Below, one piece after another: positions 21,367-27,184 of a stretch of 30,838 nucleotides of DNA. Both the position numbers and the translations under genes were made by a program. The notes below the pieces were generated by a model that ran no database searches, was not told where the DNA came from, and saw nothing but the letters and a program-made list of their open reading frames with translations. This DNA is from a virus (taxonomy: Duplodnaviria; Heunggongvirae; Uroviricota; Caudoviricetes), in IMG/VR virus record IMGVR_UViG_2917413769_000005. One strand, given 5' to 3'. Every line of letters begins with the position of its first letter. Position 1 is the first letter of the stretch.

Positions 21367-21750
21367 TCAGTGGGGATTGATGGATAGTCGGCGCAAAACA
21401 GCAGCAACATCGCCACTGCTTAATGAACCCGTCGCTGCGGATACGGTCAGTTCTTCCAGTTCATTACCTTCATCACGGATATCAATACCATTGCGCTTTA
21501 AAAAAGCCATCGCAACGAAAAAGGCGGTTCGCTTATTGCCGTCATTGAAGATATGACCACGCGAAATGGCGACGAGATACATCGCAGCGAGTTCGTGAAT
21601 ATCCTCAACGCCTTCATAGTAAAGCTGGTTCTGAACACGATAAATGATCGCCTCTGCTCTTCCCGGTTCTGGCATCCCCTGAACGCCGGGCAAAGCTGCA
21701 AGCAGACGATCATGAAACGCTATCACCTCCTGAGCGCTGATCCATTTCAT
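21367..21750 (-). CDS. doc: Doc toxin (Fic-fold)
   Basis: Strong resemblance to P1 Doc including HIFNDGNKRTA Fic-type motif and PGRAEAIIYRVQ; ATG overlaps the phd stop. Confidence 0.85.
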   Translation of the reverse strand: MKWISAQEVIAFHDRLLAALPGVQGMPEPGRAEAIIYRVQNQLYYEGVEDIHELAAMYLVAISRGHIFNDGNKRTAFFVAMAFLKRNGIDIRDEGNELEELTVSAATGSLSSGDVAAVLRRLSINPH

Positions 21751-21968
21751 CTGTCAGCCAGCGCCTTAATGGTACGACCGTGTCGCCCCATAATTTCAGC
21801 AAATTCAGCATCCAGTTTTGCTTCCTGCCACGCATTGAAATCATCCCGGCTGATAAGCACAGCGGCAGAGCCATCGCGGCGGGTAATTTCTACAGGCTCG
21901 CCAGCCGTAGCCGCCTCCATTACCTCAGCAATATTTTGCCGGGCCTGAGATGTGGTATAGGTTCGCAT
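21747..21968 (-). CDS. phd: Phd/YefM-family antitoxin
   Basis: MRTYTTSQARQNIAEVMEAATAGEPVEITRRDGSAAVLIS...AKLDAEFAEI resembles P1 Phd; strong RBS AAGGAGGT 5 nt before ATG 21968. Confidence 0.8.
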   Translation of the reverse strand: MRTYTTSQARQNIAEVMEAATAGEPVEITRRDGSAAVLISRDDFNAWQEAKLDAEFAEIMGRHGRTIKALADR

Positions 21969-22195: not shown

Positions 22196-22705
22196 TCAGA
22201 AAACTGGATTAATTTTGCGGTGGTAGAGCACTTCCCACAGAAGCGATATCAACTCTTCCTGCCTGATATCCACGGCTTCACTGGCGTCATATTTAGCCAT
22301 CAGCTCATTGATTCGCTCAACAGACAATGGCCCTGCGGAATTTACCGCTGATCGGGAAGATGGGAGACAGCTTTCTTCAGGCGGATGCTCTTCACGCCAT
22401 TTCTTTGCCGCCCTCTCATTCATCAACTGCCATTCGGGATATCGGTTAAATAGCTCACGCTCGGTACTGGTTCGCGCATCATGGCCTTCATCTGCCAGCC
22501 GCGCTGGTTCTGGCTCGCAGCTTTCAGACAAAGCAATATCGTCGGGAGCGTCAAACGGTTTTAACCCCTTGCAGGTGCAGCAAATGCGATCATTAAAATA
22601 ATACTTTTCCTTGTAGTGCAGCTCGTTACCACACTTACGGCATCGCTTAATTTTGTTACTGATGAAATCAATTACTTCCTGCTCTCGCTGTTCTTCGTCA
22701 AACAT
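22196..22705 (-). CDS. hypothetical zinc-ribbon protein
   Basis: Cys cluster CRKCGNELHYKEKYYFNDRICCTCKG; sits where P2 has orf91; 5' end overlaps the 3' end of A; start uncertain (22705 or 22747). Confidence 0.5.
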   Translation of the reverse strand: MFDEEQREQEVIDFISNKIKRCRKCGNELHYKEKYYFNDRICCTCKGLKPFDAPDDIALSESCEPEPARLADEGHDARTSTERELFNRYPEWQLMNERAAKKWREEHPPEESCLPSSRSAVNSAGPLSVERINELMAKYDASEAVDIRQEELISLLWEVLYHRKINPVF

Positions 22706-25281
22706 ACGCGCTGCCCCTGATTCCTGGTGCCAAACAACCTGTCCCACGCAGCCGGATCAGCTTTTTTCAACATTTCCGCATAGCTGCCAACGGGATCATG
22801 CCTGATATCTCTGCTGTCAACATTATGACTTAGCTTCATATGCTGCCACAAATCGGCAGTCTTACGGTCAGCTCCGTTATCTTTTCTGCGCCTCAGCTCT
22901 CCGCTGCTGGTTGCGGAGACAATAAAGCCATCAATTCGCAAACGCTCACCGCGTAGCAATAACGTTAACTGACCTGTGCTCAGTTCTATGCCTATAGATT
23001 TGGCAAAATCATCCAGTGCCGCAATGCGATCGACTGATACAGGAACTGGCCCGGTAACAGCAGGCATATCCCTTTCCTGCTGCCTCAATTCCTGAGCAAC
23101 TTTTAGATAGCTCTCGGCCCTGGCCTGCTCAATATCATCACAATCTGATGCCGTAATGGCATTAGCCAGCGCCTCAAACTCATCAGCAGGTGATTTTTGC
23201 CGTTCCGGTTTGTAGTTTCTGATGCTTTCGTTGAGCCTTTTTTTCTGCTCGTGGGTCATTTGACCAATTTCATACTGTTCAGGCTCAACTGGTGGCGAAT
23301 TTTCACCCTCTGAATTTGTATGTTTTTTGACCTCAGTACAGTTATTGACACGAGTCCTAGAGGGCGCGGACGCGCCCCGAAGGTCAAAATCAAAGTCAAC
23401 GGCCTGCCCGGAGTCGTCTAAAACTTCCGGTTTCTTACGCACAATGCGGTAGGTATGCAGGCGGGTTTCAATTGGTGGGATGTGAACGGCCGGCATCATC
23501 AGACCTTTGATAAGATCCAGATACTCGCCGTAATCATTTGGTTCGTCTTTCTGCTGGTACCAAATGCGCAACGGCAGATCACGGCGGGCAACCAACGCCC
23601 CGCCTTGCAATTGGGTGTATTGCTGCCAGTCGCCAGCATCCGCAGCACGGTGCAGCTCAGCAAATAGCGGGTTTATCTTGTCGGCCTGTTCCTGATTGCG
23701 GAACCGGCGCAGCTCACGCCAGACAGATACCGGCGCGCCGCCCAGAAACTGAAACTGACGGATGCCCCAGCAAGATGCCCAGGCGGTTGCATGTTTTGAA
23801 GTTTCTTTCAGCGGCCTGCCGCTCTCGTCGTCGGTTTCACCGTCGAGCGCGTAGCCGTCAATATTCTTACTGATGTACTTCACCACATAGCCGGTGGCGC
23901 TGCCGATTTCATGATCGATCGGCTTCATATCAAAACGCGGTTGGTTGCCGTGTTTGCCCTGCAACTCTTCCGCATCCTCGCGGGTTGCGTAGTCTTCCAT
24001 CACTTCCAGCAGCTCGGCAGAATGTTCCGGCAGGGAGAACAGCAGGCCGTGCCAGTGCGGCGTACCATCGTGATGAGACTCAGCCACCCGCAAACCAAAA
24101 ACAGGGATTTCACGGCGGGCCAGCTCAGCGCGGATCTGTTGCCATACCCGGTTAAGATAACGCTGCGTGGCTCTTGGGCTGGCACCGTTCCATTTGGCAT
24201 TACGATGACCGAATACGGTATATGCGTGGTATTTGGATGGCGCTGTCAGGGTAAAAAACTGTCCCGCGTATCCGCTTTCGGTGGCGACTTTCTCAAAACC
24301 ACCAATGCGGGTCATGAGTTCAACGCGGCGTAATGCTGGATTAGAAATGCTCTTATCGATCTGCTCAATAAGCGAAATACGCTCTTTGGTGTCCTGGTCT
24401 TCCAGCTCAAGGCGAGCCATGATCGCGCGGCTGCGTTTGCGCCTGGCATCCCACTCATCAACGTGGTGCTTACTGCAATAAGGCGCAGCGCCCCGCTTCA
24501 CATCACCAAAGGCGATATGCAGGTGCTCACGCCAGCGCGCCGCGTACTTTTTCAGGTTACGATGCCAATAGCGATCATCCAGCATCTTACTGATGCCAGT
24601 AGTAGCCTCATCAATAAACAGCGTTCCCCGGCAATACTTTGCCCAGCTCGGAGGCGTCAGGAAGAAAAGCCGCGCGAGGATAGCCGCTTCGGTGTAAAGG
24701 TATCCGGCATATTTGCGATCACTCTGAGTCTCTACCGTTTCGTGAACTTCGCTCAGCACAGACCGCATATAGATAGCAATATCCTGCGCCAGCAGCTCAA
24801 CATCTTCCGGCGTGAAATCCGGCAGGCGGTTAAAGCGCTCAACCAATCCGTGAAGAGTGTGAAACGTGTGGTAAAGCGGGTTTACCCCTTTGAATGCTGT
24901 ATCAGCCTGAGATTTAGCCTCATCGGTCACCGCAATAGCGTATTGCTCATTCACCATGTTGATGGGCGGGAGATCCCTGCGAATAATATCGCGTAGCGCC
25001 AGACGGGCGATGTGCCTGCCCTTCATGGTGTGAATGCTGTCAATACGGGAAGCCAGACGCAGGCGAATAAAGCGAGGTAGCGGCGCAAGGGTAACTTTCA
25101 CCCACGCCAAAAACTCCTGTTCTTGACCCAGCTCGACTAGATCAACAACGGGAGTCTTATCAACACAAATGGCAGCTTTCGGCTTCTGCCATTCGTAAGC
25201 GTACCGGGTGGCGTCTGGTGCGCTACCCGGATACGGAGGGGGCGGCGTTGGAGCGCCACGCCCACTGGCTGCGGTGGTCAT
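22672..25281 (-). CDS. A: replication initiation endonuclease A (rolling-circle HUH type)
   Basis: 869 aa; HUH-like motif ESHHDGTPHWHGLLF and Tyr region GYVVKYISKNIDGY as in P2 gpA; position upstream of the cos-proximal accessory slot. Confidence 0.85.
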   Translation of the reverse strand: MTTAASGRGAPTPPPPYPGSAPDATRYAYEWQKPKAAICVDKTPVVDLVELGQEQEFLAWVKVTLAPLPRFIRLRLASRIDSIHTMKGRHIARLALRDIIRRDLPPINMVNEQYAIAVTDEAKSQADTAFKGVNPLYHTFHTLHGLVERFNRLPDFTPEDVELLAQDIAIYMRSVLSEVHETVETQSDRKYAGYLYTEAAILARLFFLTPPSWAKYCRGTLFIDEATTGISKMLDDRYWHRNLKKYAARWREHLHIAFGDVKRGAAPYCSKHHVDEWDARRKRSRAIMARLELEDQDTKERISLIEQIDKSISNPALRRVELMTRIGGFEKVATESGYAGQFFTLTAPSKYHAYTVFGHRNAKWNGASPRATQRYLNRVWQQIRAELARREIPVFGLRVAESHHDGTPHWHGLLFSLPEHSAELLEVMEDYATREDAEELQGKHGNQPRFDMKPIDHEIGSATGYVVKYISKNIDGYALDGETDDESGRPLKETSKHATAWASCWGIRQFQFLGGAPVSVWRELRRFRNQEQADKINPLFAELHRAADAGDWQQYTQLQGGALVARRDLPLRIWYQQKDEPNDYGEYLDLIKGLMMPAVHIPPIETRLHTYRIVRKKPEVLDDSGQAVDFDFDLRGASAPSRTRVNNCTEVKKHTNSEGENSPPVEPEQYEIGQMTHEQKKRLNESIRNYKPERQKSPADEFEALANAITASDCDDIEQARAESYLKVAQELRQQERDMPAVTGPVPVSVDRIAALDDFAKSIGIELSTGQLTLLLRGERLRIDGFIVSATSSGELRRRKDNGADRKTADLWQHMKLSHNVDSRDIRHDPVGSYAEMLKKADPAAWDRLFGTRNQGQRVCLTKNSESRK

Positions 25282-26297
25282 TTCACCGCATCCATGTAAG
25301 CACTTATGAAGGTTGCTGCGACTTCCGCGCAGATGGCATTTCCGTAGGCGCGCAACTGGCCCACTCTTCCGGCAACCCCATTAACCAGCGGCTTAAGTCC
25401 TGGTTTAACTGGCCTCCACTTTCCATCATGGCAGAAGAGCCAGTCAGCATCTTGCCAGAAGCCGTTAACCTGATGGGGCCAATCATTTTTGATTGCTGGG
25501 TCAGACTGCTGCCCGTCATCGCCGGAGTGATCCCCCTCCCGCCCCTGGTTCCGTCCGATGCACTCGGAGTTGTCCAACCGGATAACTGTGCTGTCACATC
25601 CAGCCGATCCGTTGACAGCTTCCCGTTGCGAATCCTCCCTCCCTGATACCCCCCTTTCCCATCCGTTGCTGTTGGAGTATTCCACCCCGCTAGGCAGGCA
25701 AAATCTTGCAGATTCGACTGCCTGCCCGCCATCATTCTGGCTATAACTTTCAATGGATCCTGATACGCGTTTTTGACGTTGCTCGCGTTCGGAGTGGGCC
25801 ACCCAGAAGAGGCGCTGTCTTATATGCGGGGCACCGAAGCCCGCAGCGCAAAGATCGAGAGCTGTTGCGGCGTAGCCCGTTCCTTCCAAGTCAGTCTGTA
25901 CAATGTCGAACCAACCGAGGCCGTCCTTGCTTGCAACCTGCTCACCAAAGACAGTCTCAGGGCGGCACTGCTCAATGAGATAGTGGAAATGGGGCCAAAG
26001 GTGCCGCTCGTCAGTAACCCCTGCTCTTTTGCCTGACTGGCTGAAAGGTTGGCACGGGCAAGAGCCTGTCCAGATAGGGCGATCGTCCGCCCATCCAGCC
26101 CGGCGCAGGGCGTAAGACCAGACGCCGATCCCTGCAAAGAAATGGCATTGAGTGAATCCGTTAAGGTCATTTGGTGTTACTTCCTCAATAGAACGGGTGT
26201 CAACAACGCCCGGCGCTATGTGCCCAGCGTCAATAAGATTGCGCAGCCATTGAGCCGCAAAGGGATCGATCTCGTTGTAATAAGCCGTCACAATCAC
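25278..26297 (-). CDS. C5-cytosine DNA methyltransferase (frame integrity uncertain)
   Basis: Frame A carries FFAGIGVW (motif I-like), GSCPCQPFS (PCQ), FGEQV (ENV-like), APHIRQRLFWV (motif VIII-like) and C-terminal LRAYGNAICAEVA (motif X-like); GTG start overlaps the Dam stop; middle part is low complexity. Confidence 0.6.
   Translation of the reverse strand: MIVTAYYNEIDPFAAQWLRNLIDAGHIAPGVVDTRSIEEVTPNDLNGFTQCHFFAGIGVWSYALRRAGWADDRPIWTGSCPCQPFSQSGKRAGVTDERHLWPHFHYLIEQCRPETVFGEQVASKDGLGWFDIVQTDLEGTGYAATALDLCAAGFGAPHIRQRLFWVAHSEREQRQKRVSGSIESYSQNDGGQAVESARFCLPSGVEYSNSNGWERGVSGREDSQREAVNGSAGCDSTVIRLDNSECIGRNQGREGDHSGDDGQQSDPAIKNDWPHQVNGFWQDADWLFCHDGKWRPVKPGLKPLVNGVAGRVGQLRAYGNAICAEVAATFISAYMDAVK
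25307..25819 (-). other. alternate-frame open segment inside the C5 methyltransferase gene, with G-W-x-T-P-x-A-x-D repeats and a motif IX-like RWLMGLPEEW
   Basis: Frame open from the TAA at 25820-25822 to the stop at 25304-25306; three repeats (GWPTPNASN, GWNTPTATD, GWTTPSASD) differ mainly at this frame's synonymous positions. Confidence 0.4.
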
Positions 26298-27184
26298 GCC
26301 CCCTCAGCACACTGCCCGCAGCTCTCACAGTTCCCGCAACCACCTGCCGGGCATCCCTCAACGATGCCCAAAGTGCCGATCACCTCTTTGGCCTTCTGGC
26401 GGTTGCTGGCGTCAGTGCTAACAGAGCGCTGCACGTCGATTTCATGCAGGCGGAAACGGTGGTAAATCTCGCGGGTGGTTTCGGTGTCACTGTTGGAAAT
26501 GACAACCGGCGCGCCATATTTGCGGTTCACTTCCAGCAGCTCCGCCGCTAACTGGCGGTGGTGCTTCTCGGTGAATGGCTCGGTGTGGTATTGGGTGAAA
26601 TTGGCGGTTTCGCTGGCAGGCAGGTACGGGGGATCGCAGTAGATGGCTTCATCCGTTCCAACCATCACTTTGAGGGTGTTTTGAAACGAGCTGCACAGAA
26701 AAATAGCTTTGGTGTCGTTGGCCTTCTCAGCAAACTGGCGGATCTCCGCCTCCGGGAAGTAAGGCGCGCTTTTGTGCTGACCAAACGGGACGTTATAACC
26801 ACCGCTCTGGTTGTAACGCACCACGCCGTTGTAGCCGTGGCGGTTGAGGTACAGAAACAGAGCCGCGCGGGCCACATCAAGCAAGCCTTTTGTACCGTTG
26901 AAAATGCGGCGGTTCTGTAAGTATTCCTCTTTGGAATTGCCGGTCGCAAAGAGCGGGCGGGCAAGATCAATCACCAGCTCAGGATTGCTTTTTACCTCAC
27001 GATAAAGGCGGATCAGATCTGGGTTGATATCCGCAAGAATGTACCGGCGATAATCGGTATTGAGGAACACGGAAGCGCCGCCAACAAAAGGCTCAACGAG
27101 GCAACCAGCCTTTGGTAAATGCGGCAGTAATTCAGGCATCACGCGGCTTTTGCCACCGGGCCATTTGAGTAGAGATCGAATCAT
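26294..27184 (-). CDS. DNA adenine methyltransferase (Dam-like, D12 class)
   Basis: N-terminal KWPGGK and catalytic DPPY motifs; RBS AGGAGA 9 nt before ATG 27184; Cys-rich C-terminal tail. Confidence 0.85.
   Translation of the reverse strand: MIRSLLKWPGGKSRVMPELLPHLPKAGCLVEPFVGGASVFLNTDYRRYILADINPDLIRLYREVKSNPELVIDLARPLFATGNSKEEYLQNRRIFNGTKGLLDVARAALFLYLNRHGYNGVVRYNQSGGYNVPFGQHKSAPYFPEAEIRQFAEKANDTKAIFLCSSFQNTLKVMVGTDEAIYCDPPYLPASETANFTQYHTEPFTEKHHRQLAAELLEVNRKYGAPVVISNSDTETTREIYHRFRLHEIDVQRSVSTDASNRQKAKEVIGTLGIVEGCPAGGCGNCESCGQCAEGA

Follow-up and report, generated by a model that had tools for sequence, protein, structure and literature searches.

The window, that is, the whole 30,838-nucleotide stretch of the Caudoviricetes record IMGVR_UViG_2917413769_000005, carries inside a P2-like prophage a minus-strand gene for a C5-cytosine methyltransferase (hereafter C5-methyltransferase) in which two long reading frames overlap on the same strand; all window coordinates below refer to features on the minus strand. 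Frame A (26297..25278) has 339 codons, starts with GTG and is open throughout, and its product is identical (exact match) to WP_135495394.1, a 'DNA cytosine methyltransferase' of Escherichia sp. E1130. Frame B, a 288-codon +1 frame (26170-25304), lies wholly inside frame A and is broken in the window by one in-frame stop. Across the family of genes to which this one belongs, both frames are protein-coding and under purifying selection, with about 100 codons or more conserved in A and B simultaneously; the statistical signal is unambiguous.

Frame A codes for the large domain of a C5-methyltransferase, an unconstrained linker of ~110 residues and a segment with motif X. Motif I (FFAGIG, 26141-26124) aligns to FAGLGG of M.HhaI, and it is followed by the catalytic Cys motif IV (CPCQPFS, 26060-26040), by a counterpart of the ENV of motif VI (FGEQV, 25949-25935) and by a counterpart of the QxRxR of motif VIII (GAPHIRQR, 25835-25812). 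Residues ~168-278 are rich in Gly, Ser, Arg, Glu and Asp, after which the chain runs CHDGKWRP...LRAYGNAI, ending in motif X (YGNAI, 25346-25332), which is invariant among homologues. The conserved C-terminal block CHDGKWRPVKPGLKPLVNGVAGRVGQLRAYGNAI (25332..25433), motif X included, is mostly dual-coded with the conserved C-terminus of frame B. An earlier note, made from the letters of the window alone, had described frame A as open over 339 codons, with catalytic motifs at its N-terminus, a low-complexity middle and a GNAI-like C-terminus, and all of these are present where it placed them.

Frame A matches PHROG 363 (phrog_363) over its full length (1e-92), the match to PF00145 is limited to residues 76-175, and the score of 41 bits against TIGR00675 falls under the cut-off of 100.65. 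The frame-A profile aligns with the M.HhaI family over A residues 38-171 and M.HhaI residues 2-174 (hhalign, probability 98.4); CPCQPFS, FGEQV and GAPHIRQR align to M.HhaI residues 71-178 (E 5e-16), and no alignment of frame A with M.HhaI reaches beyond motif VIII. The AlphaFold2 (AF2) model of frame A is folded over residues 1-170, has a predicted local distance difference test score (pLDDT) of ~25 over residues 172-288 and ends in a confident helix at 324-338, and the top Foldseek matches of this model are C5-methyltransferases, over ~170-190 columns. Motif X is too short for a significant profile match, and the predicted helix comes after YGNAI. By these models, frame A is a large domain plus motif X on a predicted disordered tether, without the small domain. 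A target-recognition domain (TRD) and motif IX between motifs VIII and X were not found in frame A of any homologue examined.

The motif order in frame A seems to be permuted, in that residues 1-37 (26186-26297), which read YYNEID..AA.WL.N...G.VD.RSI, precede motif I. By eye, this N-terminal stretch seems to resemble motifs II-III, and hhalign leaves a gap of ~35 residues in frame A where motifs II-III of M.HhaI lie. The canonical order I, II, III, IV is not found in frame A of the window and is kept in homologues from Firmicutes phages.

Frame B reads MTLTDS...GSTLYRLTWKERATP...LRASVPRI, then TAA, then DSASSGWPTPNAS...GWNTPTATDGKGG...GWTTPSASDGTRGG...QLNQDLSRWLMGLPEEW..., to a stop at 25306-25304. 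Its N-terminal piece of 116 codons (25820..26170) runs from the ATG at 26170-26168 to the TAA at 25822-25820 and consists of an unconstrained tail of ~45 residues followed by the conserved module LSASQAK..GLLTSGT...GSTLYRLTWKERATP...LRASVPRI, which overlaps motifs IV-VIII of frame A. A Shine-Dalgarno-like GAGGA (26182..26186) lies 11 nucleotides 5' of the ATG, inside the codons for the conserved S-I-E-E-V of frame A, and from it we infer that this internal ATG is a candidate start site of B. The C-terminal open segment (25304..25819), of 171 codons plus the stop, holds three GWxTPxAxD repeats, namely GWPTPNAS (25781..25804), GWNTPTATDGKGG (25649..25687) and GWTTPSASDGTRGG (25538..25579), and a motif IX-like end, LSRWLMGLPEEW (25361..25396), which is preceded by QLNQ and overlaps the conserved KPGLKPLVNGVAGRVG of frame A, both frames being conserved here. 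The three repeats and LSRWLMGLPEEW had been reported correctly in the earlier note, as had the differences between repeat copies at third positions of B (GGG/GGG/GGT, CCG/CCA/CCG and GCG/GCA/GCA). That note had also taken B to open at 25819; B is indeed open from there to the stop at 25306-25304, but the upstream boundary is a lineage-specific nonsense stop, and B continues upstream of it. Only two PHROG families recognise frame B, 1008 along the entire chain (residues 2-278, profile positions 11-286, 1e-33) and 31772 in the C-terminal part (1e-44); the label 'DNA methyltransferase' of these two PHROGs carries no evidence.

Conservation of both frames among homologues

A tblastn search with the 288-residue frame B of the window returned 241 phage records, 167 of which had one piece covering at least 80% of the query. 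At every locus opened, the frame-B match lay in the +1 frame of an annotated cytosine methyltransferase (N15 gene 58, BcepC6B gp33 and Bordetella PHB09, for example). Together with 160 further loci from viral and genome collections, this gave 163 usable genes. The sources of the 160 further loci are phages and prophages whose hosts are alpha-, beta-, gamma-, delta- and epsilon-proteobacteria and other groups; the ~160 homologues as a whole include genes from Proteobacteria, Firmicutes and cyanobacteria and span 47-69% GC content. Throughout the 163 genes, frame B is open from codon 64 of A or earlier to ~5-30 codons short of the end of A, and frame +2 has 5-28 stops (24 in the window's own gene). 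In the family, B has its own ATG ~40 codons into A and is ~290 codons long, reaching 488.

The middle of frame A ranges from ~100 to 300 residues among homologues and is open in all but one of the ~160 genes, even where the repeat region is ~300 codons long. The sole gene with A interrupted, that of Consotaella salsifontis (L120:1501-2622), has a stop in the linker of A (…GIWPQSS*RGATD…) and an intact B, the reciprocal of the window. The homologues are thus colinear with frame A through its middle and conserve frame B as well. The earlier note had set two outcomes against itself beforehand, namely colinearity with A through the middle with no conservation of frame B, or a single indel correction that restores one continuous frame; the first half of the former was observed, and the result as a whole falls outside both.

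In Firmicutes phages (47% GC content), frame A is a canonical C5-methyltransferase (LFSGIGG...PCQ...ENV...GNAV), and the nested frame reads ...LTWK...VPRT.G...WxTPxAxD (several copies)...QLNPDWVECLMGFPIGWTD. The number of GWxTPxAxDxxGG repeats varies across the family from 2 to ~11. Two metagenomic genes, L007:3001-4467 and L009:2106-3539, have ~10 WxTP repeats each, with B chains of 488 and 477 residues and A frames of 541 and 516 codons that are open to GNAI. The repeats of these two genes read in frame A as a recurring G-L/M-A-D-T.

A search with the B profile gave 19,836 clusters at 50% identity, 7,969 of them at E 1e-30 or better. The best 150 of the 19,836 B-type representatives start at B's own N-terminus with no N-terminal extension, and therefore none of them has a fused catalytic domain; likewise, no relative with WPTP repeats in frame with a catalytic domain was present among the best matches listed.

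The nested frame has been called by some annotators. Both open reading frames (ORFs) are annotated in Xanthomonas PhiXhv-28 and PhiXhv-5; Escherichia phage K1ind2 has ORF29, a 'C-specific methylase', with the nested ORF28, an 'Mte8-like protein'; in Paenibacillus phage Bloom both gp56 and gp57 are called, the nested gp57 as a second 'DNA cytosine methyltransferase'; and in Cylindrospermopsis phage Cr-LKS3 (L177:1390-2127) only the B frame is annotated, as 'methyltransferase'. GenBank names for the nested ORF are thus 'Mte8-like', a second 'methyltransferase' or 'hypothetical', and the RefSeq record examined (E. coli TOK-001, annotated with the Prokaryotic Genome Annotation Pipeline, PGAP) has frame A only. 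In a paper on Paenibacillus phages, two methyltransferase genes appear with no further remark. No paper on the nested ORF was found in a literature coverage that is incomplete, and 'Mte8-like' is an annotation label only.

The openness of each frame was compared with a null in which synonymous codons were permuted within each gene, which is conservative because the codon choice of each gene is already adapted to the overlap. With the A protein kept over the 120 N-terminal codons, shuffling put a mean of 1.3 stops into B, which stayed open in 23% of shuffles (observed, 114/118); with the B protein kept over the middle, A received a mean of 2.1 stops and stayed open in 15% of shuffles (observed, 118/118). 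For the middle of the window's gene, B-synonymous shuffling gave a mean of 3.6 stops in A, which was open in 0.35% of 2000 shuffles (0.0035), and for L007, with 303 middle codons, A was open in 0/2000.

A comparison of the dN/dS type for each frame, which the earlier note had proposed, was run from site-class counts on 56 disjoint sequence pairs. In the middle, omega was 1.11 for A and 0.49 for B, which bears out the suggestion, drawn in the note from the repeat codons, that B is the selected frame there; at the C-terminus both frames are constrained (omega_A 0.35, omega_B 0.42). At the N-terminus omega_A was 0.19 and omega_B 0.62, the latter value being confounded with the normally slower change of second than of first codon positions. 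It is discounted because the underlying ratio, dNN/dNS, equals the second-to-first position rate of A and would be below 1 even without an overlapping gene, and therefore the case for B at the N-terminus rests on ORF maintenance and fixed third positions.

Such fixed positions are apparent from the column-wise conservation in 71 non-redundant genes of less than 85% nucleotide identity (GC content at third positions, GC3, 0.64). Third positions of A are free in columns 0-43 and near-fixed from the Pro of PCQPFS onward, with Pro as CCT in 65/71 genes, Phe as TTT in 71/71, Val as GTT in 71/71, another Val as GTA in 63/71, Glu as GAA in 71/71 and Ile as ATC in 70/71. The B residues in LSARQAK..GL.TSGT...GSTLY.LTWK.R.TP...LRAS.RRTS are mostly 80-100% conserved, also where the residue of A varies; the W and K of LTWK are both at 1.00, and the Trp of B is at 1.00 where the Leu of A is at 0.56. 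In the C-terminal block, A and B alike reach a conservation of 80% or more at ~26 codons, and the constraint on B stops at ...EW..CA, right where YGNAI of A starts. The first ~45 codons of B are open yet unconstrained. Counted from the Q of QCHFFAG in non-redundant genes, an ATG lies at -11 codons in 62/92 and at -7 in 37/92, with none in 3/92; the ATG at 26170 in the window is the one at -7. The gene is thus divided into five zones: A only (~85 codons), A and B together (~75), B-only repeats (100-300), A and B together again (~40), and the A-only motif X.

A putative two-subunit methyltransferase

Every C5-methyltransferase needs a TRD and motif IX. We think it probable that the gene is dual-coding and specifies a two-subunit C5-methyltransferase in which A would be catalytic and B would provide target recognition and motif IX, the copy of B in the window being broken. 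The A chain would bring the II/III-like N-terminus, motifs I, IV, VI and VIII, the disordered linker and motif X. The B chain would be a second polypeptide of ~290 to 490 residues, translated from its own internal ATG and composed of an N-terminal module, 2 to ~11 GWxTPxAxDxxGG repeats and a motif IX-like QLNPxxSRWLMGxPxxW end, and the two chains would assemble into one methyltransferase, as in M.EcoHK31I. It is because A is without the TRD and motif IX that B is proposed to supply both; the middle of A is unconstrained and variable in length, so that any TRD must sit in B. On this model motif X has to share a chain with motifs I-VIII, and the sole path between them crosses the repeats of B, which would explain why the linker of A must stay stop-free. 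Both the A-B complex and the role of B in DNA recognition are inferred here from sequence.

For the heterodimeric C5-methyltransferase M.EcoHK31I, PMC2836561, which cites the original work by Lee, Kam and Shaw, describes a beta chain with motif IX whose coding sequence lies wholly inside the alpha gene in another frame; the N-terminal part of this chain mediates association with alpha, and internal Met codons can start it. As in M.EcoHK31I, a second ORF here lies entirely within the methyltransferase gene, in another frame of the same strand, and it does so in ~160 homologues as well. Unlike that of M.EcoHK31I, the nested ORF is longer (~290-490 codons), takes up ~85-90% of the host gene, spans catalytic motifs IV-VIII and has a variable tandem repeat array, and the family is phage-borne and very large. 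M.EcoHK31I, compared here by description rather than by sequence, could itself be a member of this family.

Other known systems share parts of this arrangement. In M.AquI, a C5-methyltransferase that is split in nature, the alpha and beta chains come from consecutive ORFs that overlap slightly. Like M.AquI, the enzyme proposed here would be a C5-methyltransferase made of two polypeptides split around the variable region; unlike in M.AquI, one ORF is nested in the other, with long doubly constrained stretches. The Bacillus phages SPR, phi3T and rho11s have multispecific single-chain C5-methyltransferases with tandem recognition modules between motifs VIII and IX. Like these, the gene here is phage-encoded and has tandem modules variable in number, whereas the Bacillus phage enzymes use one chain and one frame, and their TRDs are not GWxTP repeats; a target for each repeat is unsupported here. 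In classical overprinting, phiX174 gene B lies within A and E within D, and in bacteria there are 'shadow ORF' candidates. The same-strand, shifted-frame overlap and the skewed composition of the unconstrained frame are as in the phiX174 genes; the differences are that the overlap here extends over 0.9-1.5 kb in double-stranded DNA phages and is conserved across bacterial phyla, that conservation holds for A and B alike at ~100 or more codons, and that the products appear to be parts of one enzyme. The nested two-chain kind of C5-methyltransferase is already known, and some annotators as well as PHROGs had picked up the nested ORF; what is new is how far the doubly constrained overlap extends, that the nested subunit bears repeats, and how large and phylogenetically broad the family is.

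Several observations weigh against the two-subunit enzyme, in addition to the confounded N-terminal omega of B. In M.EcoHK31I the TRD is in alpha and not in beta, whereas here no TRD can be recognised in the large chain, and the two chains would share the work differently. Frame B has no match in Pfam, NCBIfam, PADLOC or PDB sequences. The AF2 model of B alone is poor (pLDDT 55, predicted template modelling score, pTM, 0.26), in which the first 66 residues are disordered, GSTLY.LTWK...LRAS forms a hairpin, and there are a single long helix and, from repeat to repeat, short ones; a poor model of the chain on its own is what one expects of a predicted subunit that folds on its partner. When the B profile was compared by hhalign with M.HhaI, both as a single sequence and as a family of 25 sequences, the sole alignment was that of QLNPxxSRWLMGlPxeW to KLHPRECARVMGYPDSY (residues 273-292, motif IX), at E 0.23 and a probability of 0.3%; the family brought little profile gain, since the M.HhaI homologues retrieved were all at least 71% identical. 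The position of this alignment is suggestive, its score is not significant, and the putative link of B to methylation rests on this short motif. Finally, A still looks intact in the window, which would be odd if B were essential, though the mutations in B appear recent.

Because the motif IX link is not statistically significant, one serious rival stands, in which B is a true overlapping gene that is under selection but unrelated to methylation, with an accessory or anti-defence role for instance, and A works alone or with a host factor. It would account for the lack of significant similarity of B to any methyltransferase or curated family, for the predicted disorder in its first 66 residues and much of the rest, and for a repeat architecture unlike known TRDs. 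We nevertheless consider it unlikely: A is without a TRD and motif IX in every homologue examined, and B is co-inherited with A wherever looked, including in Firmicutes phages with an otherwise canonical A. Furthermore, the most conserved end of B, L-N-P-x4-W-L-M-G-x-P-x-x-W, is the only segment that hhalign pairs with M.HhaI, and it does so at motif IX; the best 150 of the 19,836 B-type representatives have no N-terminal extension; and the B-specific middle has passed as a module from one diverged gene to another, in the manner of specificity domains.

A second possibility, which we hold to be highly improbable, is recoding: past motif VIII ribosomes would leave A for B, and ahead of GNAI they would return to A, making one canonical chain with motifs I-VIII, TRD, IX and X. 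The earlier note had leaned this way, proposing a passage from A to B near 25800-25820 and back to A near 25360, and when I-VIII are taken from A, the IX-like motif from B and X again from A, the motifs do stand in the order of a single-chain enzyme. The alignment does not bear out such a junction. There is no nucleotide conservation at columns 120-124, where the third positions of A are free, and a conserved slippery site is therefore absent there (no search aimed at slippery motifs or stimulatory structures was made). Also against recoding, the middle of A is kept stop-free although its amino-acid sequence is unconstrained, and A, rather than closing soon after the junction, continues ~170-370 codons to its own conserved C-terminus. 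In addition, B is open and partly conserved for ~115 codons 5' of the supposed shift site and has its own ATG; its conserved N-terminal module, lying over motifs IV-VIII of A, would be absent from any A-B-A hybrid protein. We know of no precedent for two shifts in opposite directions in one gene.

An artefact or decay, be it sequencing or assembly indels, a compensated frameshift pseudogene or 'shadow' ORFs driven by GC content, is scarcely credible, since the internal stop in the window's frame B and a GC content of 56%, which lengthens chance ORFs, are outweighed by identical sequence in independent assemblies, by ~160 homologues that keep both frames open with frame +2 full of stops, and by shuffle nulls that are exceeded and conservation that is codon-periodic in both frames. 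The indels or sequence errors that the earlier note had listed among four options fall with it: both frames are long ORFs in ~160 homologues, the allele recurs in independent assemblies and, no indel having disrupted A or B, there is none whose correction would restore a single frame. True dual coding, another of the four, matches the comparative data.

If B is the recognition and motif IX subunit of a two-subunit enzyme, the 'DNA cytosine methyltransferase' annotations in this family cover half an enzyme, and specificity predictions, heterologous expression and the interpretation of methylomes for these phages miss one subunit. In bacteria and double-stranded DNA phages, same-strand overlaps that are long and conserved and yield two functional products are rare, and claims of them are often contested. 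A more far-reaching version, which we advance tentatively and regard as rather doubtful, is that the GWxTPxAxD array would consist of expandable target-recognition modules exchanged as cassettes, making this a multispecific methyltransferase with its specificity subunit overprinted on the catalytic gene. If that were true, this overlap (0.9-1.5 kb) would rank with the longest known in which purifying selection acts on both frames, kept from phages of Proteobacteria to those of Firmicutes yet absent from Pfam, NCBIfam and PADLOC, and it would offer a natural system for how two functional proteins share codons.

The interrupted copy in the window and its surroundings

Among the ~160 genes, none but that of the window has an interruption within the constrained part of B. 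The premature TAA (25820..25822) arose by a C-to-A change at 25821, which is silent in A (Ile, ATC to ATA) and converts a Ser of B from TCA to TAA; this Ser is 97-99% conserved, and a Hafnia alvei allele keeps TCA. A second C-to-A change, at 25401, likewise a difference from the Hafnia allele, is again silent in A (Pro, CCC to CCA) and replaces the invariant Pro of QLNP in B with Gln. Of the 54 columns that are at least 90% conserved in the B family, the window departs at two, those of the 25821 and 25401 changes, and the damage to B is on this account recent. The first in-frame starts past the TAA, a TTG at 25753 and ATG ATG at about 25735, would both lose repeat 1. B is thus broken in the window, where it is a newly formed pseudogene or else yields fragments alone, and methyltransferase activity is probably lost or impaired in this copy. 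The case illustrates how mutations without effect on the annotated protein can still inactivate a gene.

Independent assemblies and read sets (GCA_005781065.1, SRR6148301 and SRR8835199) carry this allele together with its stop, and sequencing error was rejected as the source of the stop on this ground.

Over the 450 nucleotides from motif VIII to KPGLKPL (25386-25835), the gene is 98.9% identical to that of Hafnia alvei OZ061315.1 (L178:1957-2406), which lies in a different prophage context, whereas the flanks of the two genes are 77-78% identical. All 5 differences in these 450 nucleotides change B, and 4 are silent in A. Such a nucleotide mosaic is the pattern expected of an exchanged specificity cassette, and it suggests that the repeat region may be exchanged between genes as a cassette. 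The H-I-R-Q-R of frame A at 25812-25823 uses the rare codons ATA and AGA; AGA is common to the Hafnia allele, and ATA creates the stop in B.

In the prophage, the gene order is integrase, Cox, Fil, Dam, the C5-methyltransferase gene and the gpA replication endonuclease. Upstream lies a Dam-family N6-adenine methyltransferase (26294..27184, PF02086), whose TGA stop overlaps the GTG start of frame A (GTGA, 26294-26297), and downstream lies a P2 gpA-type replication endonuclease (22672..25281, PF05840), whose ATG overlaps the TGA stop of frame A (ATGA, 25278-25281). Because start and stop codons overlap on both sides, Dam, frame A and gpA look translationally coupled, and the internal start of frame B sits within this chain. 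Farther downstream of gpA, at about 21367-21968, also on the minus strand, are a Phd/YefM-type antitoxin (73 residues) and a Fic-domain protein (127 residues), which look like toxin-antitoxin or abortive-infection cargo.

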